Assembly: GCA_032161105.1 (NCBI GenBank)
Contig: JAVHTD010000002.1
Length of the DNA: 64,000 bases
Direction: 5' to 3' (one strand)
Origin: Candidatus Thermosaccharophagus tengchongensis
GTDB taxonomy: Bacteria; Armatimonadota; Fervidibacteria; Fervidibacterales; Thermosaccharophagaceae
Shown here piece by piece: positions 433 through 62,675 of this stretch. The number at the start of each line of letters is the position of its first letter. Within the stretch, counting starts at the first letter, position 1. Under the pieces are notes generated by a model. That model saw nothing but the letters and a program-made list of their open reading frames with translations. It was not told the DNA's origin and made no database searches. A program made the position numbers and the translations under genes.

Positions 433-1542
433 ATGAGGCTTAATGTGGCAGTTGTTGGGCTCGGATTTGGGCAAGTATTTGCGAGGATTTTCAATGATCA
501 TCCCGAATGTGAACTTATCTGCGTTGCCGATTTGAACGAGGATATAGCCGTAAATGTAGCCCAAAAACTCGGCGTTAAAAGGGTGGCAAAGTCCTTGGAT
601 GAAGTTCTTACCATGAAGGATGTGGATGCAGTGGCAATATTCACGCATGCCCCAAGACATGCGGAACACTCAATTTCGGCGTTAAATGCTGGGAAACATG
701 TCCTTTGCGCAGTGCCAGCGGCGATAACAATTGATGAATGTGAGCAACTAATTGATACTGTCAAGAGAACTGGTCTCATTTATGCTAATGCCGAGACAAG
801 TTACTTTCGCCCAGAGACAGCACAGTGCAGGAAATGGTATAATGAGGGTAAATTTGGCAAAATCGTTTACATGGAAGCCGAGTATTTGCATGATTACGGA
901 CCAAAAGGCATCGGTGCATTGAGTCCAAAAGAATTTGCAGGGCATCATTGGAGGCATGGCTTTCCCCCATTCCTTTACATCACACATTCAACCGGATTTT
1001 TGCTCGGAATAACCGGGAAAAGGCTCATTGAGGTCACGGCATATCCGGTTGGGATACCGGGAGATGAAGTGTTTAGAAGTGACACATATTGGCAATGCCC
1101 GTTTGGAAATGCTGTGGCGCTTTTTAAAACAAGTGATGGAATCCCTGTCAGGATAATGGAGATGAGGCGTGTGGCATACAGTGTTGTTGAAAAGTTCTCA
1201 ATTTATGGGCAAAATATGAGTGTTGTATCGCCGAGGCATGAATATTGGGAGAAGAGCTATGTCATTTTTGAGCGAAAAGAGGATGGAACTGTTGGGGAAC
1301 CGACCCCGTTTTACCCAAATAGGCTATATGACCAGTTGCCGGATGAACTTGTCAAATACACATACGGCGGACATGGCGGCTCACACCCATACATTGTTGA
1401 GGATTTTGTTCGCTCAATTGTTGACGGAAGGAAACCGCAGGTTGATGTCTATAAGGCAGTGGCGTTTTGCGCTCCGGGAATAGTTGCCCATCAATCTTGT
1501 CTAAAAGAGGGAGAAAAACTGAAGATCCCGCAGTTTGATTGA
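433..1542 (+). CDS. Gfo/Idh/MocA family NAD(P)-dependent oxidoreductase
   Basis: N-terminal Rossmann VAVVGLGFG; 'HAEHSISALNAGKHVLC'; C-terminal GHGGSH. Start set at ATG 433 behind a GGGGTGA SD. Confidence 0.9.
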   Translation: MRLNVAVVGLGFGQVFARIFNDHPECELICVADLNEDIAVNVAQKLGVKRVAKSLDEVLTMKDVDAVAIFTHAPRHAEHSISALNAGKHVLCAVPAAITIDECEQLIDTVKRTGLIYANAETSYFRPETAQCRKWYNEGKFGKIVYMEAEYLHDYGPKGIGALSPKEFAGHHWRHGFPPFLYITHSTGFLLGITGKRLIEVTAYPVGIPGDEVFRSDTYWQCPFGNAVALFKTSDGIPVRIMEMRRVAYSVVEKFSIYGQNMSVVSPRHEYWEKSYVIFERKEDGTVGEPTPFYPNRLYDQLPDELVKYTYGGHGGSHPYIVEDFVRSIVDGRKPQVDVYKAVAFCAPGIVAHQSCLKEGEKLKIPQFD

Positions 1543-1560
1543 ACTTGCAATGCTTTTGAG

Positions 1561-1612
1561 TTGCATTTCATGAGGGCACTGAAGGTTGCGAGTATGGGCG
1601 TATGAAATGCAA
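1561..1612. repeat. Intergenic 11-bp perfect inverted repeat (30-nt loop)
   Basis: ttgcatttcat (1561-1571) and atgaaatgcaa (1602-1612). Confidence 0.5.
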
Positions 1613-1715
1613 TGAGGGGCAGATTTTGGCGGGGATGTTCATGTTGCTGATCCAGTTGCGATTACCATTCAAGTCACGGCATATGTAGGCAGGATTTAGT
1701 CACGAGGTGAGTGAG

Positions 1716-3140
1716 ATGCGCGTGTTTGGATTGGCGAATTTTCTCAATAAAAGTGAGGAGGATTCAATCCACCTGACGATGTTAAAGATACTTGACGAAG
1801 TTGGTGTAATTGTTGAGGATGATGAAATTATTGACAGACTTGGGGAATTTGGGGCAAGAGTTGACAGGAATTTGGGGAAAGTTTCATTCTACCCGCAATT
1901 CGTTGAACAGTTTATAGCCGAATCCGAAAAGTTTGACTGGAAATCAATCAGACCCGGAGTAAGCGGGCATGCTGGGGTTTATTTCGGCTATTATCTTGAC
2001 CCAGAAACTGACGATTTTAAGCCATGGACTGTGAGGGATTTGCTTCGTTACATGAAGGTTGCACACTACTTGCCAAATACTTCTGGCAGTATTTCTTATG
2101 CCTTCCCAATTGATGCCGTTCCGGATGAGGCACTCGTCCCGTTTTTTCACTACCTTTCGCTCAAATTTGTTGGGAGAAGTGCGGCATCGCTGAACAACAT
2201 TCGCTGGTGTCCGATTGTCCTCGAAATGTGTGGGGAGTTTTCTGGGGAAACTGGCGTGCCAATTGGGCAAGTTTTTTGCGGTCATGTTCACCTGATTTCG
2301 CCGCTCAAGTTCGGGCGTGAGGAGGCAAAAATTTTCAAATTTTTTGCAAAAATTGGCATAAGAGTTGGCGTTGGAAATATGAGCTCCGCAGGTGGAACAG
2401 CACCAGTGACGCTGGCAGGCGCGATCTCAATTCACCTTGCTCAAGCCATGTTCATTAATATCCTCAATCGTGCCTATTTTGGTGACAAAAAGCTTTACAT
2501 TGGCTGCTCAATTTCGCCGCTTGATATGAGCACAGGGATGTATCCTTACGGGAGACCGGAAAAGGAGATTTGCAATGTCATCACGGCTCAAATGGCAAGG
2601 AGATATGGGGCATATTATGGCGGTCATACTGGGCATTCTGATGCAAAAAGACCGAGCGTTGAGTCTGGCTTTCAGAAAGCCCTAAATTCCATCCCGACTT
2701 TGATGGTTTGTGGCAGGGCATCAATCAATTGCGGTTTACTCTCGGTTGATGAAGTTTTCTCACCAATCCAAATGGTGATTGATGACGAAATTGTGAGCGC
2801 CTTGAATCGCTTCATCAATGGGTTTGAAATTAACGAAGAAACTCTGGCATTTGATGCCATAAAGCGGGTTGGCGCAGGTGGATGTTTCATTGACGATGAG
2901 CACACTGCGCGCTTCCACAGGAGTGAAATATGGCAGCCGAGGATTTTCACGAGGGATATGCTCCGTCCTTGGCGAGAAAAAGGGGCAAAAATTGACATTG
3001 AAGTTGCGAAGGAGATATGGGGCGACATAATGCGCCGTGAGCCATTGCCGCCGCGGATATCGCAATCGCTTGAGAAAAAATTGCTCGAAATTGTGGAAAG
3101 GAGTGTTGGAGTTAAGATTAAGCCAGTTGAGCCAGTTTGA
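1716..3140 (+). CDS. Trimethylamine:corrinoid methyltransferase (MttB) superfamily protein, non-pyrrolysine type
   Basis: N-terminal 'IHLTMLKILDEVGV', 'ISPLKF', 'GGTAPVTLAG', 'SDAKRPSVESGFQKA', 'QMVIDDEI', 'GAGGCFIDDEHT'. No in-frame TAG. Confidence 0.85.
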   Translation: MRVFGLANFLNKSEEDSIHLTMLKILDEVGVIVEDDEIIDRLGEFGARVDRNLGKVSFYPQFVEQFIAESEKFDWKSIRPGVSGHAGVYFGYYLDPETDDFKPWTVRDLLRYMKVAHYLPNTSGSISYAFPIDAVPDEALVPFFHYLSLKFVGRSAASLNNIRWCPIVLEMCGEFSGETGVPIGQVFCGHVHLISPLKFGREEAKIFKFFAKIGIRVGVGNMSSAGGTAPVTLAGAISIHLAQAMFINILNRAYFGDKKLYIGCSISPLDMSTGMYPYGRPEKEICNVITAQMARRYGAYYGGHTGHSDAKRPSVESGFQKALNSIPTLMVCGRASINCGLLSVDEVFSPIQMVIDDEIVSALNRFINGFEINEETLAFDAIKRVGAGGCFIDDEHTARFHRSEIWQPRIFTRDMLRPWREKGAKIDIEVAKEIWGDIMRREPLPPRISQSLEKKLLEIVERSVGVKIKPVEPV

Positions 3141-3188
3141 CTGAGCGCTTCGCATTTTAGCTCGTTGGGACACCATTGAGCGTTACCA

Positions 3189-4451
3189 TCAGCTGTAATT
3201 TGATTGCCTTTCGTCCAAGCCATACAATCTCGCTGGATTCTCGTAGAACCACAATCTCACAAGCCACAGCGCTTCGTTTAAGTCCAATCTTCCGTCATCT
3301 ATCAGCTGAGCTAACGCGTGAGCAATGTTTTCGCGAGCCATGACGAGATGCCCCCAAACTTTTTCAAGCGCCGGTGCGCTATAATCGCCACCAAATGCGA
3401 TGATTTTGTTGACTGGAACGATGTCAATGTATTCTGGTAGCGAGGTGCGAACCATCATTGGCGAAACGATGTGAGACCAGCAAAGATTGAGGTAGACATT
3501 CGGGAAGTTTTTGCCGATGAAAGCAGCATCTCGAACCCAGGGCATCCCCATGTGGTAAAGGTCAAACTTGGTTTCTGGATGTCTTGAAAATTGTGGAATC
3601 ATCAATCTCGGGTCAAGTCGCCTGAAATCGCCCCAAACGCCGGAGTGAACAGCAATTACTAAGTCCAATTCAGCACACAACTTGAAAGTCTCCTCAGTCA
3701 AGAAAAGGTTCAAGTCGTTTCTATCCTCCTCCGATGCATTCCCGTTCATGATGGCTTTAAACGCCTCTTCCGCTCTTTGACGAGTCGGTGGCGGTTCCTT
3801 TCGTGGCAAGGCGCTCGTTTTAAGCCCGACGACTCGCTCGTTTTGCTTCCAAGTCTCAAGCCTTTGTTTCATCCATGCGAGATAGTCATCAAGTGTGTTG
3901 ATGGTCATGTTCAAACTTGCTCCGCGCCTCTCAACTTCTTCACGAGACCTCACAAGCGCGACAAAATCAAGGGGCAAAATTGGGATGAGGAATGGCTCGG
4001 TGTAGTCAGTGCGTCCTGCTTGGGTGAGCGCAAACTTGGCTTTGCACTTTTCAACCAAAATCTTGCGGTATATTCCCGGCTTGTTCACCTCAGCCATCTT
4101 CTCGGAAATCTCACGGTAGTTTTGGCGGTTGATTTCGCTGTAACCGTAAATGTCGCGCAAAGCTATGAAAACGGGACGAGCGTATGACCCAAAGCGAATG
4201 AAGGGCAGGAAGCGCTCAAGGATGTTAAAGCGCTCGTCAAGCGGGATTTCGGGATTGAGCATCCGTTCATACTCGGTTGATGTCATGCCCGCAGAGATGA
4301 GGTCGTTGCGTGTGTAATGCGAAAAGAGGAAGCAAACATCAACCTTCAGTTTCAACCGCTCGCTTTCTGGCGGCAAGTGTTCGTGTGCGTCTATGATCTC
4401 CAGTTCTTCCATCCGCTCCATCAGTTGCTCCACGAGTTTATGGTGCGCCAT
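3189..4451 (-). CDS. Amidohydrolase family protein (uronate-isomerase-like TIM barrel)
   Basis: Metal-binding 'IIDAHEHL', 'VHSG', 'DLYHMGMPW', 'FGGDY' and C-terminal 'ENPARLY'. Start at ATG 4451 behind GAGGTGA. Confidence 0.85.
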   Translation of the reverse strand: MAHHKLVEQLMERMEELEIIDAHEHLPPESERLKLKVDVCFLFSHYTRNDLISAGMTSTEYERMLNPEIPLDERFNILERFLPFIRFGSYARPVFIALRDIYGYSEINRQNYREISEKMAEVNKPGIYRKILVEKCKAKFALTQAGRTDYTEPFLIPILPLDFVALVRSREEVERRGASLNMTINTLDDYLAWMKQRLETWKQNERVVGLKTSALPRKEPPPTRQRAEEAFKAIMNGNASEEDRNDLNLFLTEETFKLCAELDLVIAVHSGVWGDFRRLDPRLMIPQFSRHPETKFDLYHMGMPWVRDAAFIGKNFPNVYLNLCWSHIVSPMMVRTSLPEYIDIVPVNKIIAFGGDYSAPALEKVWGHLVMARENIAHALAQLIDDGRLDLNEALWLVRLWFYENPARLYGLDERQSNYS

Positions 4452-4727
4452 CGTTATCACCTCGCAAAGAAGAATAAGGTAAGCCGCTTGGGAAACTCAT
4501 TGGCGATTGCGCCAACTAAGTAGTCCTGCATTACCGGCGAGTCGCTTAAAAGTTTACGCAAGTGGGGTGAGTTGTTAAATGCAAACGAATCGGTTGGCGG
4601 CGTTCTAACGACGCTGCGTTTTTCGCGCATAGTCATCAGGGTCGCACCAGCATTGTGCATCAAGTGCGTTATAAATTATGGTTTCGGTGCGAAGCAAATT
4701 TCCACTTGAGTGGTGAGGTGAATTGGC

Positions 4728-52416: not shown

Positions 52417-52702
52417 GCTCATCTTAATGGATGGCAGACTCAACCCAGCATGCGAGGTTGATAAAGTTGTTGCCCTCTCCATGTAGCTTTCGTGAGTTGT
52501 GAAGAGCTAATCCACTTTAGAATCATGTGGCATCATGATTAGCCAACAGCGATTGCGTTTTGAGATTTAACCTCTGTAAGCAGACAGCGCTGTGAGGCTT
52601 TAGTCTGGGGTGTCATCAAACGGGCGGTATTGATGGCACGCCAAATTTTGAGGATGAGATGATGAACTGCTCATCGGCAAAATTGCGATGGGGGTGAGGT
52701 AA

Positions 52703-53644
52703 ATGGAGGTCATTGCCATTGGTGAATTGCTTGCTGAGATAATGCGTCCCAAAGTTGACATGCCGCTTTACCAACCATGTGAGTTCATCGGACCCTTCCC
52801 GAGTGGTGCTCCGGCGATATTCGCTGACCAAGTTGCGCGTTTGGGGCATAGCGCTGCAATCATTGGTGCTGTCGGCAACGACGATTTCGGTAAGTGCATA
52901 CTTGAGCGGCTGAGCAGTGATGGGGTCAGCACGAAACATGTGAAGGTTGTTGATGAGCTCGCAACTGGTGTGGCATTTGTTGCATACTTTGGCGACGGCA
53001 GCAGGAAGTTCATTTTCCACTTCGGCAACAGCGCTGCAGGTTGCTTGCCTGATTCAAGTGAAGTTGACCTCAGCGGGACTGAGTTTGTCCACATATGCGG
53101 ATGCACGCTGAGTGCCGGTGGTAGAATGCAACAGGAGTGCTACAACCTTGTTGAGAGGGCAAGTAGCGCCGGGGTGAAAATTTCATTTGACCCAAACTTG
53201 CGCCCGGAACTGCTCTCCGATGTGAACACGGTTAGGCGAATTTGCGAGCCAGTGCTGCGCACGGCATATGTTGTCTCCACCGGACGCCATGAAGCACTTG
53301 CAATAACCGGTGCAGATGATGAGGATGAAGCGTGCAGGAGTTTACTCAACATGGGAATTGAAGTTGTCGCCGTAAAGCTCGGTGAGCGGGGCTGCCGGAT
53401 ATACTCTCACAGTGATGTCGTTGAGGCACTGCCGTTCAAGGTTGATGCAGTTGACCCGACTGGCGCTGGTGATTGTTTTGATGCGGCTGTAGTCGTCGGA
53501 TTGATTGAGGGTATGCCGCTTGAGGATATAGCTCGCTTCGCCAATGCGTGCGGCGCACTGGCGACAACGCGCCTTGGTCCGATGGAAGGGGCATTTTGGC
53601 GTAAGGATGTTGAACGGTTTATGCGTGAAGGGACACTTGAATAA
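52703..53644 (+). CDS. PfkB family sugar kinase
   Basis: 'IGELL', 'SGAPAIFA', 'VGNDDFG', 'FDPNLR', 'DPTGAGDCF'. Confidence 0.92.
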   Translation: MEVIAIGELLAEIMRPKVDMPLYQPCEFIGPFPSGAPAIFADQVARLGHSAAIIGAVGNDDFGKCILERLSSDGVSTKHVKVVDELATGVAFVAYFGDGSRKFIFHFGNSAAGCLPDSSEVDLSGTEFVHICGCTLSAGGRMQQECYNLVERASSAGVKISFDPNLRPELLSDVNTVRRICEPVLRTAYVVSTGRHEALAITGADDEDEACRSLLNMGIEVVAVKLGERGCRIYSHSDVVEALPFKVDAVDPTGAGDCFDAAVVVGLIEGMPLEDIARFANACGALATTRLGPMEGAFWRKDVERFMREGTLE

Positions 53645-53664
53645 AACACGGGGTGATCTTTGTC

Positions 53665-54840
53665 GTGCTTGACTTTGCGCAACTCAGGCGGCAGATGAGC
53701 GAAATGGCTTTAGAGCAAGCTGCGCGCCGCGAGGACATTGCTGCAAGGTCGAAGAAGGCATCCTCAGTGCTAAAGCAGTGGGCTGTGTCTTGGGAGGAGG
53801 TGTTGAGGAAGGTTGAGGCGAGCAGGACATCGTGGCTGCTTGCAAGACCGGTGAATGTGCTTGATTTTAAAATGCATGTGGACGAACCCAAGCGCCCGCT
53901 CACTGTCTTAGCAAGCGATGGCTCTCAAATTTTTCCGGACAAGCATGAAGTGGCATTATGCTACCTGATCAACATTGGCTTGGTGGCGCTTCACTATGGC
54001 GTTGGCGAACCGCCAATGATGCGGTGCTACCCGCTGCTCTACTACCGCGAGGAAGATCTCTATGAGCGTTGGGGCGGGAGGAAAGTTCTGGTCAACCATG
54101 ACATAGCTTCAGCGAAGCGTCAGCTCCTTGAGATTGAAACGCTCGCCGACACTGCTTGTTCGCTCGGAGGGAAGCAAGATAAGGTGGCTTTAGTTGATGG
54201 CTCACTCATACTTTGGCGGTTGGAGGGGATGCCGGGTGACTTCGCTGACGGAGTCCTCAAAAGGTTTTTAGCTGCACTTGATAGGTTCAGGGAAGAGGGC
54301 ATCCCGATTGCTGGCTACATTAGCTCTCCGAGGTCAACGGATGTGGTGAACACACTTAAGGTGTGCATCTGCCCTTATGCGCAAGCCGATTGCGATAAAT
54401 GCGAGTATAGGTGTGGAGATGAAATTCCGCCATGTTCATGCATTGATGGTGTAACCGATGCGCTGGTGTTCAGGCATCTCCTTTCAAAGGGTGAGCACAC
54501 TCAGCCATTTTGTAGCTCGTCCAAGATACTTGAGCGTTACGGTGAGCACGCTGTCAGATTTGTTTACCTCAATGTTGGGTATGAGGTTGCGAGGGTTGAG
54601 GTTCCGTGCTGGATTGCAAGCGATGATGCATTGCTAAGGCTTGTCTTGGCGACGGTTTTTGAGCAAGCGCAAAAGGGCAACGGCTATCCGGTTGTGCTTT
54701 CCGAAGCGCATGAGCGTGCCGTCATTCGCAGCAATGAGCGTGAGTTCTTCTTCAGGATGCTTGAGGAGACATTCGTTCGGCACAACATTAGGGTGGGCAT
54801 GTCACTCAAGATGCTCGCAAAGCGTGCGCCGGGCATTTGA
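53665..54840 (+). CDS. nurA: NurA-family DNA double-strand-break repair nuclease (bacterial type, Cys-rich insert)
   Basis: 'ASDGSQI', 'LVDGSLI', 'ARVEVP', 'GYPVVLSEAHERAVI'; insert 'CICP...DCDKC...C...PCSC'. Confidence 0.85.
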   Translation: MLDFAQLRRQMSEMALEQAARREDIAARSKKASSVLKQWAVSWEEVLRKVEASRTSWLLARPVNVLDFKMHVDEPKRPLTVLASDGSQIFPDKHEVALCYLINIGLVALHYGVGEPPMMRCYPLLYYREEDLYERWGGRKVLVNHDIASAKRQLLEIETLADTACSLGGKQDKVALVDGSLILWRLEGMPGDFADGVLKRFLAALDRFREEGIPIAGYISSPRSTDVVNTLKVCICPYAQADCDKCEYRCGDEIPPCSCIDGVTDALVFRHLLSKGEHTQPFCSSSKILERYGEHAVRFVYLNVGYEVARVEVPCWIASDDALLRLVLATVFEQAQKGNGYPVVLSEAHERAVIRSNEREFFFRMLEETFVRHNIRVGMSLKMLAKRAPGI

Positions 54841-54870
54841 GCGGCGTCATTTACACGGGGGCGCTCAAGT

Positions 54871-57405
54871 GTGATGGATGGGTTAAGAGAAAGGGCAATT
54901 TCAATTGGGGGTGATGAACTGCGGAGCATCATTTATCGTCTCATCCTGCCAAAGGTGCAAAAGGCGGGCAGGTATATCGGCGGCGAGGTTAATTGCGTTG
55001 TCAAATGTGGCAATCCGATTTTGCGCATTGCAATCGCCTTCCCAGACCTTTACGAAGTTGGGATGTCAAGCACTGGCATGGGCATCATTTACCACACATT
55101 GAATGAACTTGGTGGAGTGCAGGCGGAAAGGGTCTTTTCACCTTGGGTTGATATGGAGGCATTGCTTCGTTCATACAACCTCCCGTTGTATGGCTTAGAG
55201 ACATTTACGCCGCTCAAGCAATTTGATGCCATTGGTTTTTCACTGGCGTATGAGTTGCACGGGACAAACATCCTCCAGATGCTTGACCTCTCTGGGATTC
55301 CGCTGCTTTCTCGCGAGCGCGGTGATGATGACCCATTGGTAATTGCTGGTGGATGCGTTGTTGTCAATCCCGAACCATTCGCCGAGTTCGTTGATGCCTT
55401 TTGCATCGGTGATGGCGAGGAGCTCGCAGCCGAGCTTGCTGAGGGGCTTATCCGAACGAAAGGCTTGCCGAGGATGAAGCGGCTTGAAAGGCTTGCATGC
55501 ATTGAGGGCGTGTATGTGCCGATGCTGCACGAGGTTGAGGAGACCGAAAGCGGCATGCTGGTAGTCAAAGGTGCTGGCAGGGAGGTGCGAATCAAGAGGC
55601 GCGTTGTTTGCGATCTGGACAGCGCGCCATTCCCGACAAAGCCGGTTGTGCCGTGGATTGAGACAGTGCATGATCGCGCAAACATTGAGGTGTTCAGGGG
55701 ATGCACGAGGGGATGCAGGTTTTGCCAAGCCGGAATGGTGACGAGACCGGTGAGGGAAAGGAGTGTTGACAAGCTTGTTGAGCAAGCGAATGCGGTGGCG
55801 GTGAACACGGGTTATGATGAAATCGGCTTGCTATCGCTTAACACATACGACTACAGCCACCTGAATGAGCTTGTGAGCGAGCTGCTGATGGGTGAGGTGC
55901 GCCTTTTCCTTTCAATGCCGTCGTCACGCATGGACTCATTCAACATTTCAATTGCGAGACTCGTGCACGAGGTCAGGAAGGGCGGACTTACATTTGCCCC
56001 AGAAGCCGGCAGCGAGCGCCTGAGGCGCGTAATCAACAAGCCAATAAGCGATGGCGAAATCTTTGAGCTGCTTAAGCAGGTCTATTCCAGCGGTTGGGAT
56101 TTGGTGAAGCTCTATTTCATGGTTGGGTTGCCGACGGAAACGGATGAGGATGTGAATGCGATCGCTGAAATGTGCAATGACATTGCGAGGATGGCGCGCT
56201 CGGTGAACAGGCGTGCGAAGTTGCATGTCTCTGTTTCCATCTTTGTTCCAAAGCCGCATACGCCGTTTCAATGGGAGAGGCAAATTGGGCTTGACGAGAG
56301 TCTGCGAAAGAGAAGCCTTTTGCTCAAGCGCATCAGAGAACGCAACTTGAGCCTGAAGATGCATGACTATCGCATGAGCTTCCTTGAGGGCGTCTTCAGC
56401 CGCGGCGATAGGCGTCTTTGCTCGGTCCTGCTTGAAGCATACTTGCGCGGGTGCAGGTTTGATGGATGGACAGAGCACCTCAACTGGGATGGGTGGATGC
56501 GCTCATTTGAAGCTGCTGGTGTTGACCCACACCGTTACCTGCGCGAGCGTTCCTTCAATGAGCCCCTGCCGTGGGAGCACATTGAGACACATTTGAACAA
56601 GCATTTCCTTTTGGAGGAGCGCCAGAGGGCGCTCAAAGGTGAAGTGACTGCAGATTGCAGGATTGGTGGGTGCAACAAGTGTGGTGTTAATACGATTGTG
56701 CCATATGCATGTGCTAAGTCAACCCAAATTTATGCGAGTGCGCCGCAGCGTGATGTGGCACACAAATTTAAGTCAGCCGTTGAGGCTGTTAGGACGCGCA
56801 AGGCGATTGAGCCAGTTCAGCGCATACGGTTGCGATGGACGAAGCTCGGTAAGCTGCGCTTCCTGTCGCATATTGAGATGGTAAGAGCGCTCTGCAGGGG
56901 CATACAGCGTGCTGGGATAAAGGTGTCATACTCTCGCGGCTTTAATCCCAAGCCGAGGTTCTCCTTTGGGTTTGCCTTGCAGGTCGGAATTGAGAGTGAG
57001 GCTGAATATGCGGATGTCTGGCTTGATGAATGGGTCTCGCCACACGAGTTTATGCGATTGTGCAATGAGCATCTTCCAGATGGGTGTAGCGTGCTTGAAG
57101 CTATAACTGTGCCTCTGAATGCCCCGCCGTTTGCACCATTCATTGCCGTATCGGTTTATGAAGCATTTGAGCCATCCGCTTTTGACTGCGCCACCTCGCG
57201 CCTCCCATGCTGTGCTCCCATCTTGCGCTTTGAACTCCCAGAGGGACAGCACGATCGCGTTCGCCCGCTTGATTACCTCAAAGCCGCACTCAAGCTCACC
57301 GATGAGGAGGCGCTCCAAATCAGGATAATCAAGCGAGCCACACTTTGCAGGGTTAATAACATGCTCCTATCGCCGATGGCTCTCCTCAAGTCAGTTAATC
57401 ATTAG
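54871..57405 (+). CDS. TIGR03960-type radical SAM protein fused to a TIGR03936/DUF2344-like C-terminal domain
   Basis: 'RYIGGE', 'FPDLYEVGMS', CxxxCxxC 'GCTRGCRFC', 'APEAGSERLR..INK', 'FVPKPHTPFQW'; tail 'RFLSH...YSRGFNPKPRFSF..AL.VG..S..EY'. Confidence 0.9.
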   Translation: MMDGLRERAISIGGDELRSIIYRLILPKVQKAGRYIGGEVNCVVKCGNPILRIAIAFPDLYEVGMSSTGMGIIYHTLNELGGVQAERVFSPWVDMEALLRSYNLPLYGLETFTPLKQFDAIGFSLAYELHGTNILQMLDLSGIPLLSRERGDDDPLVIAGGCVVVNPEPFAEFVDAFCIGDGEELAAELAEGLIRTKGLPRMKRLERLACIEGVYVPMLHEVEETESGMLVVKGAGREVRIKRRVVCDLDSAPFPTKPVVPWIETVHDRANIEVFRGCTRGCRFCQAGMVTRPVRERSVDKLVEQANAVAVNTGYDEIGLLSLNTYDYSHLNELVSELLMGEVRLFLSMPSSRMDSFNISIARLVHEVRKGGLTFAPEAGSERLRRVINKPISDGEIFELLKQVYSSGWDLVKLYFMVGLPTETDEDVNAIAEMCNDIARMARSVNRRAKLHVSVSIFVPKPHTPFQWERQIGLDESLRKRSLLLKRIRERNLSLKMHDYRMSFLEGVFSRGDRRLCSVLLEAYLRGCRFDGWTEHLNWDGWMRSFEAAGVDPHRYLRERSFNEPLPWEHIETHLNKHFLLEERQRALKGEVTADCRIGGCNKCGVNTIVPYACAKSTQIYASAPQRDVAHKFKSAVEAVRTRKAIEPVQRIRLRWTKLGKLRFLSHIEMVRALCRGIQRAGIKVSYSRGFNPKPRFSFGFALQVGIESEAEYADVWLDEWVSPHEFMRLCNEHLPDGCSVLEAITVPLNAPPFAPFIAVSVYEAFEPSAFDCATSRLPCCAPILRFELPEGQHDRVRPLDYLKAALKLTDEEALQIRIIKRATLCRVNNMLLSPMALLKSVNH

Positions 57406-57444
57406 ACTTATTGTGCCATATCTTTTTGCTCTGACGCTGCTACC
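57406..57444 (+). repeat. Left terminal inverted repeat
   Basis: acttattgtgccatatctttttgctctgacgctgctacc; its reverse complement matches 61244-61282 at 35/39 positions. Confidence 0.9.
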
Positions 57445-59911
57445 GTGAAGATAAGCGCACTACATAATACTTTGACTTTAGGTCAGGTGGCAAATCCCGT
57501 TCCTTGCTTAGTAACATAATCTGCATTCCATGTTCAGTCGCAAGCCATTGGCAAACTTGTATCATACCACGCACTCGTTCCCTATCAAGGTTGGCGAATG
57601 GCTCATCCAGCAGGATGAACGGTTTTCCGCTCGTCAAGCGCTTTGCCAGCGCAATTCGTGCCGCAAAGTAAAGTGGGTCACGCACACCAGGATTCATCTC
57701 GTGCTCCTCAAGGACATCCCCTTTCTCTGGATGCACCAAGCTGAAGCATTGCTTTTCTGGAATGTAACGCACTTCGCTGTATCTGCCACCAGTGATTTGC
57801 TTAAGCAGTTCGCCCATCTCTTTGGTTAATTCATCTGCCAATTCCTTGAAAAGCTGCTCTCGCACTTTTGGCAGCAGTTCCTCTAAGGCTCGCAGGACTT
57901 TTTCCCTGTGCTCCAAAGCTGCCTTTCTTGCCCTCAATTCCTCCACTATTTCCTCTTCGGCGCTAACCTGCTCAGCAGTCGGCAACCTCACCAACTCGCC
58001 CTCCAAACGCGCTACCTCTTTGCTTACCTTGCTGATTTCTTCCCGTAACTCCTTGCACTTCCTTTCACGCTGTTGCAACTCCCGTTTCAGTTTTTCCTCC
58101 GACAATTCAGCTAACTCCTCATGCTGCTGCTTCAGCTTTTCCACCTCGCGTTGCAAGGTTTGAACCTCCCGCCGAGCTTCGCTCAGCTTTTCCTCAAGTT
58201 CGTTCAAATTTGACGCATCCTGCCCCTTCAAGATAGCGTTAAATTCACCTTGCTTTTCACTCAATTCCTGCAATAGCTTATCGCGATTTTGGCGCTTTTT
58301 CTCCAGTTCCTGCTCCCGTCGCACTAACCCTTTGCGATCGGTAGCGTATTCTCGCATCCCTTCTAATTCTTTTTCCAATTCCTTCGCCCGCTCATCCAAC
58401 TTTTCCCACTCCGCTCTTAGGGACGCTTCGTCTCGTCCTGCCAGAATTGCCTTCTGCTCTCTCTCCAATTTATCTCGCTCATCCCACAGCTCTTCCAGTT
58501 GCTCCAATTTCAGCTCTAATGAACTCTCGTCATCTGCGTCATACTGCTGCATTAAAGCGTTTAACTCACAACAGATGTTATCCATTTGCTCCTGTGCGCG
58601 GTCCTGTATGCTCGCGTTCAAGGTAACCCAATTGCCAATTTGCAAGACCAAGTGCTGCCTCGCTCTATCCTGGTAGCTACCTCCAGCCTGAATCGGCGCT
58701 TCAACTGTTGGCTCACCGTCGCGTTCCACCCGCAAGACGACATCTTGCTGCGCTTGTATTTGAAATGCCAAAGCTCGTTCCTCTTGAGACTCCTCAAGAG
58801 TTTTTCTGCGTTCCAATAGGCGCTCAAGCTTCTTTCTGGCTTGACGCACTTGCTGCAGTGTAGTGTCCCTGAGCTGCTCCTTCAATTCGCCAAGTTTTTC
58901 TCTCACCTCGTTCAATTGCTCTATGCGTTTGCCGAGCTCATCTCTTTCTCTCTTCACTCGTTCCAGCTCCTCAGCCTTCTCCACATATTGTCGCCGCTGT
59001 TCTACTTCGTTCTCAAGTTGCCTCACCTCTCGGTCAGCATGCTTAAGTTCGGGCTTAAGCGCTTTTATCTCATCATCCAGTTGACGAGCCCTATCAATCG
59101 CCCTTTTTATTCCCAGCTCATCCTTCTCCGCCTCACTCAGCATATGCATAGCTTCAATTAGCGGACGCAATGTCTCCAGCCTCTGTTCAGCCTCCTTAAG
59201 CCCCCTTTGCATTTCATCCATTTTCACCCTCAGCTCTGCCAATTTTTCCTCCTTCCCTTCGCGCTCGGCAATCTGCGCCTTTAGCTCCTTAAGCGTTTTT
59301 TCCTGTTCCTCCAATTCCCTTTCCACTTGTGCTATTTCCCCCGTTGGTCTTCCATGCACTTCACGGCGCATTCTGCGCCGCTCTTCGGTCACCTGATTTT
59401 GCAGTCGGTCCAATGGAATTCCTGCCCCAAACACACCCTCTAAAGCAGCAGACAATCCTTCCACTTCAAGGCGCCCCAACTCCTCCTGCTTCACGCAAAT
59501 GGTTGCCAATGCTTCATGCTTTGTGCTCAAACCCAATGCCTCTTCAATCTTCTGCTGCACCCTTTGATGCCCCCGTAGCCTTTCCTTGCCCGTGTCCAAC
59601 TCAACGCGACCTTCCTCAAAGTCCTTGCGCAGTCGCCATGTTTCTCCATTCACCTCAAGCTCCATTTCAATGGTGAAGTATTCGCTGGCATCCCACGACC
59701 GCTCCCGCAAGATTGCCTGAGCCGTTGTTCTCGCCTGCTCAAATAGTCCAATCAATATCGCCAACGCAATCGTGCTCTTACCCACATCGTTGTCGCCACA
59801 GATGATGTTAAGTCCATCTTTAAGCACAAGCCCTTTGTCGCCAAATCGCTCCAACACTCTGTTGCGGAAGTTCACCGCCTTGATTCTTTTAATCGCTACC
59901 CTGCTCGCCAT
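57440..59911 (-). CDS. Rad50/SbcC-like (YhaN-type) SMC-family coiled-coil ATPase
   Basis: Walker A 'GDNDVGKST', Q-loop 'VKQEE', long coiled coil, Walker B/D-loop 'ILLDEPFANLD'. Overlaps the upstream nuclease gene. Confidence 0.88.
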   Translation of the reverse strand: MASRVAIKRIKAVNFRNRVLERFGDKGLVLKDGLNIICGDNDVGKSTIALAILIGLFEQARTTAQAILRERSWDASEYFTIEMELEVNGETWRLRKDFEEGRVELDTGKERLRGHQRVQQKIEEALGLSTKHEALATICVKQEELGRLEVEGLSAALEGVFGAGIPLDRLQNQVTEERRRMRREVHGRPTGEIAQVERELEEQEKTLKELKAQIAEREGKEEKLAELRVKMDEMQRGLKEAEQRLETLRPLIEAMHMLSEAEKDELGIKRAIDRARQLDDEIKALKPELKHADREVRQLENEVEQRRQYVEKAEELERVKRERDELGKRIEQLNEVREKLGELKEQLRDTTLQQVRQARKKLERLLERRKTLEESQEERALAFQIQAQQDVVLRVERDGEPTVEAPIQAGGSYQDRARQHLVLQIGNWVTLNASIQDRAQEQMDNICCELNALMQQYDADDESSLELKLEQLEELWDERDKLEREQKAILAGRDEASLRAEWEKLDERAKELEKELEGMREYATDRKGLVRREQELEKKRQNRDKLLQELSEKQGEFNAILKGQDASNLNELEEKLSEARREVQTLQREVEKLKQQHEELAELSEEKLKRELQQRERKCKELREEISKVSKEVARLEGELVRLPTAEQVSAEEEIVEELRARKAALEHREKVLRALEELLPKVREQLFKELADELTKEMGELLKQITGGRYSEVRYIPEKQCFSLVHPEKGDVLEEHEMNPGVRDPLYFAARIALAKRLTSGKPFILLDEPFANLDRERVRGMIQVCQWLATEHGMQIMLLSKERDLPPDLKSKYYVVRLSSR

Positions 59912-61058
59912 CTCCCTCACCCCCTATGGCTTGCAAGCGATTCAACCCATCTATTGCGGCTTCAAGCCAAACGCGCTTTTCATCCTCACTGGAAGCAGCG
60001 TCATAGCGCTCCTTTGCCATGCGCACTAATTGACCCGCAAAGGTGCTTGCAGGATAACGACGCAGAAGCCTTCTCCAATCCATGTGTTGCAGCGCTTGTC
60101 GGTCATCCAATTCAACCCAAAAGAATGCCTGTGCCAACTCACCCCCTTCGCTGCACCATTCATGAACTTCCCGTAGTTGCTCTGGTTGGAAAATCCCACT
60201 TAACTGGACAGTGAGCAGTTTATGCTCCGCATCTGGAAAGCGTTTGATGATGGCGCTCGCCCCGCGACCAATATCCTTTTCCGTCATAGACCATACAACC
60301 TCTTCATAGGCACCGATTTCTTTGGGCGTCACCTTAACTTGTTTGCCATCCCATTCCACCAATGCCACTTTACCTTTGCCGTCGGGTGGAGCAAAGGACA
60401 GATATTCCAGCGCACCTGGATAGACTGCTACTTTGCCATCAACTCGTTGCGTCAACCATTTGTGCCAATGCCCTAATGCGAGGTAGTGGAATGGGCTGCG
60501 AGCGATTTCGTCTCGCTCAATTGGAAAGTCAGGTTCGCTCACTCCACCAAAGCGCAGTGACCCATGCAGCAATGCCACGAGAAAATCCCCCTGAGGAATT
60601 TGAAGCTGCTCCATCACTTGACGCAGCGGATGATCTATACCGTCTTTATCTGGGCATGCCCATCCAGCGACTACCAAAGTGCCGCGCTTTACTTTCCAAG
60701 GCACAACATCCGTTTCAACAAACACAACTGCATTGGATGGCACACGGTTGCTTTGAAGCAACCGTTCCCAAAGTGACCCTTTGCCTGAATGGTCATGATT
60801 GCCAGGGCAGATGAACACTGGTGTTGGCTTTAACGCTTCAAGCATGCGCATCACATGACGGATAGTATCAGCACTTATTATAGGCGCATCAAACAGGTCG
60901 CCGCTGATCAACACGGCGTCAACATCCTCATTTTGTGCCAAGTCCATCGCCCGCTTAAGCGCCTCTAATACAGCTTCTCGCAATTGCCTACCTCGCTCCG
61001 TGCCCAATTTTCTGAATGACGCTCCCACATGCACATCCGCTAAATGCAATAACTTCAT
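59889..61058 (-). CDS. Mre11/SbcD-like (YhaO-type) metallophosphoesterase nuclease
   Basis: All five motifs are present: 'LADVHVG', 'SGDLFD', 'PGNHD', 'LLHG', 'ALGHWH'. Confidence 0.92.
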   Translation of the reverse strand: MKLLHLADVHVGASFRKLGTERGRQLREAVLEALKRAMDLAQNEDVDAVLISGDLFDAPIISADTIRHVMRMLEALKPTPVFICPGNHDHSGKGSLWERLLQSNRVPSNAVVFVETDVVPWKVKRGTLVVAGWACPDKDGIDHPLRQVMEQLQIPQGDFLVALLHGSLRFGGVSEPDFPIERDEIARSPFHYLALGHWHKWLTQRVDGKVAVYPGALEYLSFAPPDGKGKVALVEWDGKQVKVTPKEIGAYEEVVWSMTEKDIGRGASAIIKRFPDAEHKLLTVQLSGIFQPEQLREVHEWCSEGGELAQAFFWVELDDRQALQHMDWRRLLRRYPASTFAGQLVRMAKERYDAASSEDEKRVWLEAAIDGLNRLQAIGGEGDGEQGSD

Positions 61059-61229
61059 TTGCCTCTCCTCCCCCTTGACAACCTTTCCCTTTCAAAATCG
61101 GGGCGGGCTTTTTTGAGAACGCTCATGAGTTCCTCAAGGGCTTTTAGAGAAAGCCCAGCAAAGCCACGAAAGATAGTGGGAGATTTTTGCTCTTTTCAGG
61201 TTCAATATGGTCACTTTCGCCCCTTGCAT
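61055..61229 (-). pseudogene. Probable frameshifted N-terminal remnant of an IS5-family transposase
   Basis: MQGAKVTILNLK (from 61229), then a +1 frame KEQKSPTIFRGFAGLSLKALEELMSVLKKARPDFERERLSRGRRGK*. It begins just inside the right IR. Confidence 0.45.
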
Positions 61230-61243
61230 GGTCGGGTTATAAT

Positions 61244-61282
61244 GGTAGCAATGTCAGGGCAAAAAGATATGGCGCAATAAGT
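61244..61282 (-). repeat. Right terminal inverted repeat
   Basis: ggtagcaatgtcagggcaaaaagatatggcgcaataagt. Confidence 0.9.
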
Positions 61283-61305
61283 TTATTCGCAGGGGCACTG
61301 AGCTT

Positions 61306-62499
61306 TCATTCCTCATCACTGGATTGCCTTCGTGGTGAGCGCAAGAATGTGGGCGTGTCTATATCCTCCATCCCCTCCTCCAGCTCTTTGAGCAGCTCGT
61401 CAACTCTGCGCCTTGCCCCAACCCGCTCCACACTCGCAGGTGGAGCTGTCCCGCCAGTTAGCACTTGCTCTTGCCTTCCCTCGCGGGCAACTTTCTGTTG
61501 GCTGCGTTGCCTTTCCAATTGTTCCCTACTTTCCATCTCTGTGCCTGCCCCAAACCCGGTGGCTATAAGCGTTAGGCGCACCTCATCCATAATTTGCTCA
61601 TCCAATGCTATGCCTATGCGCATGTCTAACCCTTCGGTGCCACACGCATCCTTGATGATCCTCATCACCTCATGCAGTTCCGGCGGCGAAAAATCCGCTG
61701 GTGCAATTATATTCATCAGCCCTCTCGTTGCGCCCTCAACTGAATGCTCAAGCAGCGGGTTTGAGATGGCATTTCTTGCAGCCTCAATATGCCGTTCGTC
61801 GCCTTTCCCAATGCCTATCCCGATCAATGCCACGCCCGCGTTCGTGAGGACACTCCTCACATCGGCAAAGTCAATGTTTATGTAGCCCGGAATCGTGATG
61901 AGGTCACTTATGCCCTGCACAGCTTGTCTTAGGACATCATCAACCATTGCAAATGCATCCTTGAGAGTCATGCGCTTGTCAGAGAGCTCCCATATCCTGT
62001 CATTTGGTATGGTGATGATGGCATCCACAACCTGCCTCAATTGTTTTATGCCCTCGTCAGCTATCCGTGCTTTCCCTATTCCCTCTTCGGCAAACGGCTT
62101 TGTCACCACAGCGACGGTGAGCGCTCCAAGTTCACGAGCCACCTGTGCCACTATGGGGGACGCTCCTGTTCCTGTGCCGCCGCCCATTCCAGCTGCGATG
62201 AAGACCATGTCCGGGCGTTCAAGCGCCTCGACTATCGCATCTCTATCTTGTTCAGCTGCTTGTCTGCCGATCTCCGGGTTGCCACCAGTCCCAAGCCCAC
62301 CTGTTAGGCGTTGACCAATCTGGACTCTGTTTTCGGTGAGCGATTTAGCTAAGTCCTGAACATCGGTGTTGATCACGATGAAGTCGACTCCCTTTAATCC
62401 CCACTCAATCATGTGATTGATGGCATTACCACCACCGCCTCCCACGCCGACCACTTTGATAATCGCGCCCTGCTTTGAGGCATTCATCATCCTCTCCAT
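61306..62499 (-). CDS. ftsZ: Cell division protein FtsZ
   Basis: 'IKVVGVGGGGGNA', tubulin signature 'GMGGGTGTG', 'INIDFADV', C-terminal 'DIDTPTFLR'. Start set at ATG 62499. Confidence 0.98.
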   Translation of the reverse strand: MERMMNASKQGAIIKVVGVGGGGGNAINHMIEWGLKGVDFIVINTDVQDLAKSLTENRVQIGQRLTGGLGTGGNPEIGRQAAEQDRDAIVEALERPDMVFIAAGMGGGTGTGASPIVAQVARELGALTVAVVTKPFAEEGIGKARIADEGIKQLRQVVDAIITIPNDRIWELSDKRMTLKDAFAMVDDVLRQAVQGISDLITIPGYINIDFADVRSVLTNAGVALIGIGIGKGDERHIEAARNAISNPLLEHSVEGATRGLMNIIAPADFSPPELHEVMRIIKDACGTEGLDMRIGIALDEQIMDEVRLTLIATGFGAGTEMESREQLERQRSQQKVAREGRQEQVLTGGTAPPASVERVGARRRVDELLKELEEGMEDIDTPTFLRSPRRQSSDEE

Positions 62500-62675
62500 C
62501 TTCTCGCCCCCTTTGGCATCCTCAATGCCATTTGGCAGTATCACAATACACCCTTTCGCATATCTGTGGCGCGTCATACGGTGATTGCAACGCTCTCACC
62601 TTCAGCGGTTTACTACCATTATGCATCATGGCGAAGCATCATGTCAACCATGCAATTTGACGATAGCAACAGGTA

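Follow-up and report, generated by a model that had tools for sequence, protein, structure and literature searches.

Genes and repeats at the locus

The stretch of DNA analysed here, which we call the window, comprises 64,000 nucleotides of contig JAVHTD010000002.1 from Candidatus Thermosaccharophagus tengchongensis, a member of the Armatimonadota (assembly GCA_032161105.1). Our subject is a segment of ~3.9 kb within it (57403-61285), bounded by inverted repeats of the type that ends an insertion sequence (IS) and lying between a radical-SAM gene and ftsZ. Inside the two arms there are only a gene for an Mre11/SbcD-like nuclease, an overlapping gene for a Rad50/SbcC-like ATPase and a 42-codon transposase remnant (Table 1); a Pfam scan of the open reading frames (ORFs) inside the element returned no transposase domain. 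Read from right to left, the order is IRL, transposase stub, nuclease, ATPase, IRL, where IRL denotes the left inverted repeat of the IS.

An earlier sequence-only reading of this DNA had described 39-bp inverted repeats with four mismatches, TA dinucleotides outside both of them and a cargo made up solely of the two genes and a transposase-like fragment, with the stop codon of the Rad50-like gene inside the left repeat. All of this holds. The 39-nt core (57406-57444 and 61244-61282) has the 4 mismatches, and a repeat search of the window extends the arms to 42 nt, which are 88% complementary, lie 3799 nt apart and differ at 5 of 42 positions. Because TA is palindromic, the search counted it within the repeat. 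The first base of the IS terminus is changed in the left arm. ORFs, protein domains and the transposase remnant agree with the proposed contents, and the TAG at 57440-57442 places the ATPase stop codon within the left arm.

In a genome-wide search the arms match each other with E = 8e-9. A 27-nt pattern of the element end, allowing up to 3 mismatches, finds the two arms and nothing else in the window, and finds no match in any of 100 dinucleotide-preserving shuffles of it. An Rfam scan (E ≤ 1) of 56800-62000 gave no match at the arms and a single sub-threshold L31-leader match inside the cargo. The segment had also been read as AT-rich, which stands in direction but not in weight: GC content is 0.502 in the element, 0.523 in the genome and 0.530 and 0.524 in the flanks, and 9.4% of 2595 same-size genome windows have a GC content at or below that of the element. 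The AT-richness is thus real but weak and not significant, and at the 9.4th percentile we rejected it as a sign of foreign origin.

Table 1. Features of the segment and its flanks, in window coordinates
Feature	Coordinates	Strand	Remarks
TA, left outer edge	57403..57404		possible target duplication of 2 bp, or end of the repeat itself
Left inverted-repeat arm, IRL type	57403..57444	+	42 nt of IS sequence left; inner edge abuts the ATPase gene and supplies its stop codon
ATPase, Rad50/SbcC/SbcE-like, ABC type with predicted coiled coils	57440..59920	-	826 aa from GTG start
Nuclease, Mre11/SbcD-like metallophosphoesterase	59889..61058	-	389 aa
Purine-rich ribosome-binding stretch 5' of nuclease ATG	61059..61072	-	outer limit of the DNA common to the second lineage, hence the boundary of the cargo
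Transposase remnant	61064..61189	-	codons 12-53 of the 313-aa IS transposase, 64% identical
Right inverted-repeat arm, IRL type	61244..61285	-	IS sequence runs inward to ~61064 (5' leader and transposase N-terminus)
TA, right outer edge	61284..61285		TA as in family copies
Radical-SAM gene, left flank	54871..57405	+	Radical_SAM_N2, Radical_SAM, DUF2344
ftsZ, right flank	61306..62577	-	same strand as the cargo, directly upstream of it

An insertion into the radical-SAM/ftsZ spacer

In all three same-genus genomes (G001, G002 and G003), the radical-SAM gene and ftsZ are convergent, end 30-40 nt apart and have neither repeat nor cargo between them. Taking 57405-61285 out of the window leaves a spacer of ~40 nt, which matches that of these congeners, indicating that nothing was added beyond the IS ends and the cargo. 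The segment is an insertion into this spacer, and the case for insertion is carried by the empty sites in the congeners, not by the repeat alone. The earlier proposal of a transposase-less insertion bounded by IS-type inverted repeats, for which an empty site in related genomes had been named as a check, is in this way upheld, together with the IS-end matches described below.

At the left border, the insertion supplied the radical-SAM gene with its present TAG stop codon (57403-57405), in which base 1 of the arm completes the flanking TA. The uninterrupted frame would continue for ~5 more codons and stop at a TGA.

A parent insertion sequence and the type of the arms

Searching the genome and its relatives with the repeats, another of the checks named earlier, identified further copies in this genome and an intact parent IS elsewhere in the phylum. 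The intact IS, of ~1080 bp, lies in another Armatimonadota genome (G038; L045 309-1388), and its left end is the motif of the window arms. Its 313-aa transposase matches Pfam DDE_Tnp_4 (95.8 bits), HTH_Tnp_4 (45.5) and DDE_Tnp_1 (40.3), all over cut-off. These domains and the TA-flanked ends support an IS5-like parent with an HTH_Tnp_4/DDE_Tnp_4 transposase and a TA target. The IS5-family origin that the sequence-only reading proposed for the ends is therefore partly sustained: they match an IS with an IS5-like transposase, but that transposase scores 85 bits against the NCBIfam IS5-family model NF033581 (IS5_4), below its cut-off of 140.

The left arm matches the IRL of the G038 copy at 35 of 43 positions and that of the copy in G006, a sister-family genome, at 34 of 43; the corresponding counts for the right inverted repeat (IRR) are 21 of 44 and 22 of 43. 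The same preference holds for the right arm, and in intact copies IRL and IRR have only ~13-20 nt in common. By this comparison both window arms are of the left-end type and the structure is IRL-cargo-IRL, which looks like the remains of two inverted IS copies rather than an IS with a swapped interior; the idea of a simple derivative of a single IS is not sustained. The arms also have derived letters in common, CCATATCTTTTTGC, that are absent from the other copies listed. On the inner side of the right arm there is further IS sequence, a 5' leader followed by transposase codons 12-53, ~225 nt in all, and the frame of this remnant (61189-61064, minus strand) stops at a TGA that overlaps the ATG of the nuclease gene.

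A 24-nt end pattern with up to 3 mismatches is present in 8 of 41 genomes including this one: none of the three same-genus genomes, 6 of 20 sister-family genomes and one more distant genome, G038. G006 alone has 23 copies, each in a different flank. Across 24 distinct IRL flanks, TA precedes the terminal AACTT in 18, and all three copies with both ends (1080, ~780 and ~600 bp) have TA on both sides. A real IRR right end inward of an IRL is found in L045, L071 and L048 only, no IRL-IRL pair occurs at the relatives' loci examined, and many IRL matches across the genomes lie at contig ends. An intact DDE_Tnp_4 transposase in G007 (contig C36) was rejected as the same IS; its ends are different.

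Within this genome, an arm-based profile search located further ends on contigs C39 (two, inverted), C31, C6 and, weakly, C7. The C31 copy (L032, ~1467-2169) is an internally deleted IS that encodes transposase residues 1-122 and 250-309, with stops. The C6 copy (L031, 1-345) retains only residues 252-312 beside a left end; C6:1-261 and C31:1467-1727 are 98.9% identical. The C39 ends (L030, 219-373 and 11499-11653) form a 155-nt inverted repeat, 98.7% identical, that brackets ~10.5 kb with genes for an acyltransferase, TolC/HlyD/AcrB-type efflux components and a P-II-like protein. This repeat consists of the IS left end and at least 80 nt outside it, and the outside 68 nt recur at C5:102494-102561 with 84% identity. 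C39 may have arisen by inverted duplication or by an inversion that the IS mediated. We rejected it as a second cargo element, since the 10.5 kb are syntenic core DNA in 3/3 congeners.

One site and no partner transposase in the assembly

The sequence-only reading envisaged a unit moved in trans by an autonomous partner and spreading as a mobile element. Neither part is borne out. The assembly (44 contigs, 97% complete) has no match to PF13359 (DDE_Tnp_4), and tblastn with the intact transposase recovers only the internally deleted C31 copy, the more deleted C6 copy and the window stub; in an assembly of 44 contigs, some IS copies may have stayed unassembled. Two metagenome contigs (L095 and L096) are 99% identical to and collinear with 52443-61025, at the same site. 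Of 23 public sequencing runs listed, 13 contain half or more of the sampled words; all are hot-spring metagenomes, one may be the source, and 4 were compared in detail. Run X2 contains the whole element with both borders and run X15 its left junction, each at the site seen in the window. In the search for an empty allele, the only joint listed, 61285 to 61384 in run X15, was set aside, its 21-nt side being too short to trust.

In run X2, from another hot-spring population, the element has an additional base at 61188 and a further 8 nt at 61233. These 8 nt bring the spacing back to that of the other IRL copies, which indicates that the window copy carries small deletions in its IS-derived part.

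With no transposase catalytic domain in the assembly, arms that have drifted apart at 5 of 42 positions and a changed first base at the left terminus, the element, stable at its one site, is probably a fossil that is no longer mobile.

The cargo proteins

The description of the cargo as Mre11/Rad50-like is supported by protein domains, by sequence matches in the PDB and by a fold model of the nuclease. The nuclease has a Pfam Metallophos domain and retains D8, H10, D54, H88 (in GNHD), H165 and H199; in an alignment of 61 sequences, five of these (D8, D54, H88, H165 and H199) never vary, and at least 90% of the sequences keep H10. Pyrococcus furiosus Mre11 provides the closest solved structures by sequence (E 5e-16). 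An AlphaFold model (predicted local distance difference test score, pLDDT, 92.4) has an Mre11 fold, with nuclease and capping domains: every top Foldseek match listed is Mre11 or SbcD, with E down to 2e-17 and template-modelling score (target) up to 0.75.

The ATPase has AAA_23/AAA_15 domains and a weak SbcC_Walker_B match, with a Walker A motif (GDNDVGKST) and a Walker B motif (ILLDEP). The GTG start gives the 826 aa of Table 1, and its relatives begin at the ATG at 59911. Its N- and C-terminal head halves match the P. furiosus Rad50 head (PDB sequence search, E 3e-10). Heptad-rich sequence and matches of the SMC (structural maintenance of chromosomes) and JetC type suggest coiled coils, in two stretches parted by a non-heptad segment at roughly residues 395-445. 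The CxxC zinc hook is absent from the 826-aa protein, and a central cysteine pair, CC, is not conserved, reading CY in an 89%-identical relative (P0005). The canonical H-loop histidine may also be missing, judging from a single pairwise BLASTP alignment in which the histidine of a Vitreoscilla plasmid homologue (LLFSCHPE, the usual H-loop region) aligns with LLSKERD at residues ~800-810.

A further relative of the nuclease, P0012 (249 aa, 84% identical), has 22 initial residues that look unrelated at the position of motif I (DVH), which a sequencing error or a 1-nt frameshift in the codon for His10 could explain.

Elsewhere in the same genome, on contig C14, sbcC follows a canonical sbcD that scores over its cut-off (163.9 bits), so the window pair is an extra one. 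Three sigma-70 promoter-like sites occur in 57300-61400, where 2.4 are expected; none lies upstream of the nuclease gene, and a scan of the same interval detected no terminator-like site between ftsZ and the cargo. Because the cargo lies downstream of ftsZ in the same orientation, with neither a terminator nor a sigma-70-like site of its own between them, it probably owes its transcription to read-through that starts at ftsZ or in the IS leader.

Distribution of the pair and a second lineage

The nuclease belongs to a large family, with 7699 cluster representatives at E ≤ 0.001, 2062 at ≤ 1e-10 and 17 at ≤ 1e-30. Within the phylum, 41 of 151 genomes including this one have a relative at E ≤ 1e-12, with at most 35% identity; at this threshold there is none in the three same-genus genomes or in the 10 sampled sister-family genomes. 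Relatives of the ATPase are few. Among 8000 candidates scored, 9 proteins match at E ≤ 1e-5 and only 3 are at least 89% identical; an 89%-identical relative is annotated from a Candidatus Fervidibacteria bacterium, and the three same-genus genomes have no copy.

A second lineage (contig L097; runs X16 and X17) contains the pair at ~93% nucleotide identity. The match extends from 57440/57473, on the stop-codon side, to 61072, 14 nt upstream of the nuclease ATG. The X16 and X17 contigs cease to match at 61072, with unrelated sequence beyond on both sides. From the N-terminus of P0012 we had considered that this lineage also keeps the transposase stub, which the end of the match at 61072 rejects. 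The sequence-only reading is changed in this respect too: a related lineage has the pair without these ends.

Downstream of this second cassette, L097 encodes a convergent protein of 1211 aa (833-4468, minus strand) with REase_MTES_1575 (DUF559-like) and DEAD/Helicase_C domains, which scores 269.7 bits with the PADLOC model of DpdF and 217.7 bits with that of PsyrT. Neither the present genome nor the same-genus genomes contain this 5 kb. Behind the helicase gene there is a coiled-coil ORF of 160 aa. A 68%-identical copy lies in G008:C14.

In a plasmid collection, 131 records have matches, all below 60% identity. Vitreoscilla plasmid pVF1 has a nuclease-then-ATPase pair annotated as 'DNA repair exonuclease' and 'AAA family ATPase', and a Vescimonas plasmid has a nuclease gene without an adjacent ATPase gene. 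Weak nuclease matches, all unannotated, occur in 10 records of a phage collection. A search with defence-system models, named earlier as a check on a defence role, yielded no two-gene PADLOC system that fits the pair: the ATPase reaches 67.3 bits with LmuB and 55.2 bits with AriA, and the nuclease at most 23 bits with any model. Patchy distribution, carriage by an IS relic and the defence-type neighbour in the second lineage speak for an accessory or defence role. Two points speak against such a role: the pair fits no known system, and distant homologues are annotated as 'repair' proteins.

Discussion

We consider it likely that an IS-bounded cassette with a cargo of the Mre11-Rad50 kind was inserted at 57403-61285 long ago and is probably immobile now; in form it would be a mobile insertion cassette or a composite transposon that has decayed. 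In the most economical history, two inverted IS copies would have bracketed a two-gene cassette, and transposase acting on the two outer IRLs would have moved the unit into a TA. Deletions at short microhomologies could then have removed nearly all of the IS sequence, leaving 42 nt on one side and ~225 nt on the other. The junctions between IS and cargo fall, by eye, at short similarities (AAGG(G)AGG near 61072 and GTAG near 57442), which suggests trimming by illegitimate recombination. The movement en bloc and the order of these events are what we infer. By homology, the two proteins, if expressed, would act together as an ATP-driven complex, with DNA ends or hairpins as the sites that it binds and cuts.

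Several observations weigh against this reading. The congeners are only 70-77% identical to the window at this locus, and their spacers have diverged too far for the junction to be placed at base resolution or for a TA duplication to be demonstrated; the TA is palindromic and may just as well belong to the repeat. No contig in the four runs compared joins the radical-SAM gene directly to ftsZ, and no near-identical empty allele was found. The absence of PF13359 matches leaves no partner for mobilisation in trans within the assembly, and no repeat-bounded unit was found at a second site, as the two metagenome contigs and runs X2 and X15 show one site. In the second lineage neither immediate border of the cassette has such an end, which makes the cargo independent of these ends. 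The syntenic C39 block indicates that IRL pairs can arise around resident DNA without moving their content. As to the cargo, both proteins fall below every curated NCBIfam cut-off for Rad50, SbcC, Mre11 and SbcD: the nuclease scores 64.2 with the sbcd model TIGR00619 (cut-off 77.65) and at most 65 with the Mre11 equivalogs (cut-offs 500-600), and the ATPase scores 65.7 bits with the curated Rad50 model (cut-off 1000).

Some of these points bear on whether there was any en-bloc transposition. The cassette could have recombined into a resident IS or IS pair at this spacer, or separate IS insertions could have flanked DNA that had arrived from elsewhere, with trimming to follow. Both cargo/IS junctions lie at short similarities typical of illegitimate recombination, and the C39 pair brackets core DNA, as such a history would allow. 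The limits of the inserted DNA, however, coincide with the outer IRL ends, the reconstructed spacer of ~40 nt matches that of the congeners, and the derived letters shared by the arms point to a single source. We regard such piecemeal assembly as unlikely.

A broader and rather doubtful proposal, which we offer tentatively, is that 57440-61072 is a self-contained 3.63-kb module that moves between hot-spring Armatimonadota lineages, carried here by IS5-like ends, and acts against the ends or hairpins of phage or plasmid DNA. If true, the segment would be the first IS5-type mobile insertion cassette with an Mre11-Rad50-type machine, and that machine would not be one of housekeeping repair.

It is improbable that the segment is a still-active non-autonomous transposon, moved in trans by an IS5-like transposase and spreading a defence or break-repair module. 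Such activity would be in keeping with the TA-flanked IS-type ends and the empty site in congeners, with the patchy, accessory distribution of both genes and with the DpdF/PsyrT-like helicase that adjoins the pair in the second lineage. The interiors of multi-copy IS elements often stay unassembled, and many IRL matches lie at contig ends, so a transposase could be lost from the assembly only. Against this, the 97%-complete assembly contains no DDE_Tnp_4 and all IS copies there are deletion derivatives, the arms differ at 5 of 42 positions, one of them the first IS base on the left, and every contig that reaches the borders shows the same site. As for a defence cargo, no PADLOC two-gene system fits, the LmuB and AriA similarity of the ATPase (67 and 55 bits) is generic, and the nuclease stays at or below 23 bits. 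Finally, there is very little chance that the repeats are a fortuitous palindrome or a promoter/operator motif: in three copies the inner part resembles, by eye, an outward sigma-70 promoter (for example, TTGACA-17-CATAAT in C6), but none of the 100 shuffles match, Rfam finds nothing at the arms, and an IS whose transposase is intact ends in this motif, which also stands in many different flanks. We dropped the regulatory interpretation once that IS had been found.

Read as an old and decayed IS-bounded insertion, the segment would document the capture and delivery by an IS of a complete, divergent DNA-end-processing pair in a thermophile lineage that is uncultivated, with both the parent IS and an empty site identified, and would show the decay of such a cassette into a fixed chromosomal island. 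Should the pair restrict foreign DNA, it would add a thermostable Mre11-type nuclease partner to the defence systems built on SMC or ATP-binding cassette (ABC) ATPases. If it does not, the segment would be an ordinary IS relic with an unusual passenger.

Comparison with known systems

The pair resembles Mre11-Rad50/SbcCD in the predicted Mre11 fold, the intact phosphoesterase residues, the Rad50-like head and the overlapping genes in one operon. It departs from these complexes in an ATPase without the zinc-hook CxxC and in scores far below the curated cut-offs. Lamassu LmuB and PARIS AriA are the best PADLOC matches of the ATPase, a generic similarity of ABC heads and coiled coils; no LmuA- or AriB-type partner is present, and the partner here is an Mre11-like nuclease.

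SbcE/SbcF (YhaN/YhaO) of Bacillus subtilis appears to be the closest described analogue. This second SbcCD-like pair, present alongside sbcCD, takes part in the repair of double-strand breaks and in competence; its nuclease gene directly precedes the gene for an SMC-like ATPase, and that ATPase is without CxxC and has a distinct central domain (PMC2811018). The window pair is alike in its upstream nuclease gene, its ATPase without CxxC and the presence of canonical sbcDC in the same genome. The window ATPase, however, has no match at E ≤ 0.01 to Pfam AAA_27, which we take to be the YhaN-type domain, whereas its distant homologues P0006-P0010 carry PF13514. The hosts also differ, B. subtilis being Gram-positive and the window host belonging to a hot-spring Armatimonadota lineage.

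As a mobile structure, the segment recalls composite transposons of the Tn5/Tn10 type, in which two inverted copies of one IS, with identical outer ends, enclose a cargo. The segment likewise has inverted IS ends around its cargo and differs in that only 42 and ~225 nt of IS are left and no transposase is encoded. The sequence-only reading knew of no described IS5-derived element with this cargo. Cassettes of this general kind already form a described class, the mobile insertion cassettes, with cargo in IS-type inverted repeats, no transposase gene and a target duplication; MIC231 of Bacillus cereus, for example, is mobilised in trans by the transposase of IS231A (PMC3913671). Our literature search found no IS-bounded cargo of the Mre11/Rad50 type, which is weak evidence of absence.

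MIC231 and the qnrD 'mic' of Proteeae resemble the window element: IS-type inverted repeats enclose their cargo, and there is no transposase gene between the repeats. A target duplication flanks them; the palindromic TA on both sides of the window element is a candidate for one, and the spacers of the congeners have diverged too far to reveal a single TA. The window element differs from those two in having the left IS end on both sides, in its transposase stub, its IS5-like parent and a genome in which no partner transposase was found; its cargo is a DNA-end-processing pair where theirs is a resistance or peptidase gene. What it adds to this known class is an IS5-like parent in the Armatimonadota, an IRL-IRL architecture with a transposase stub, and a cargo of the Mre11/Rad50 type.

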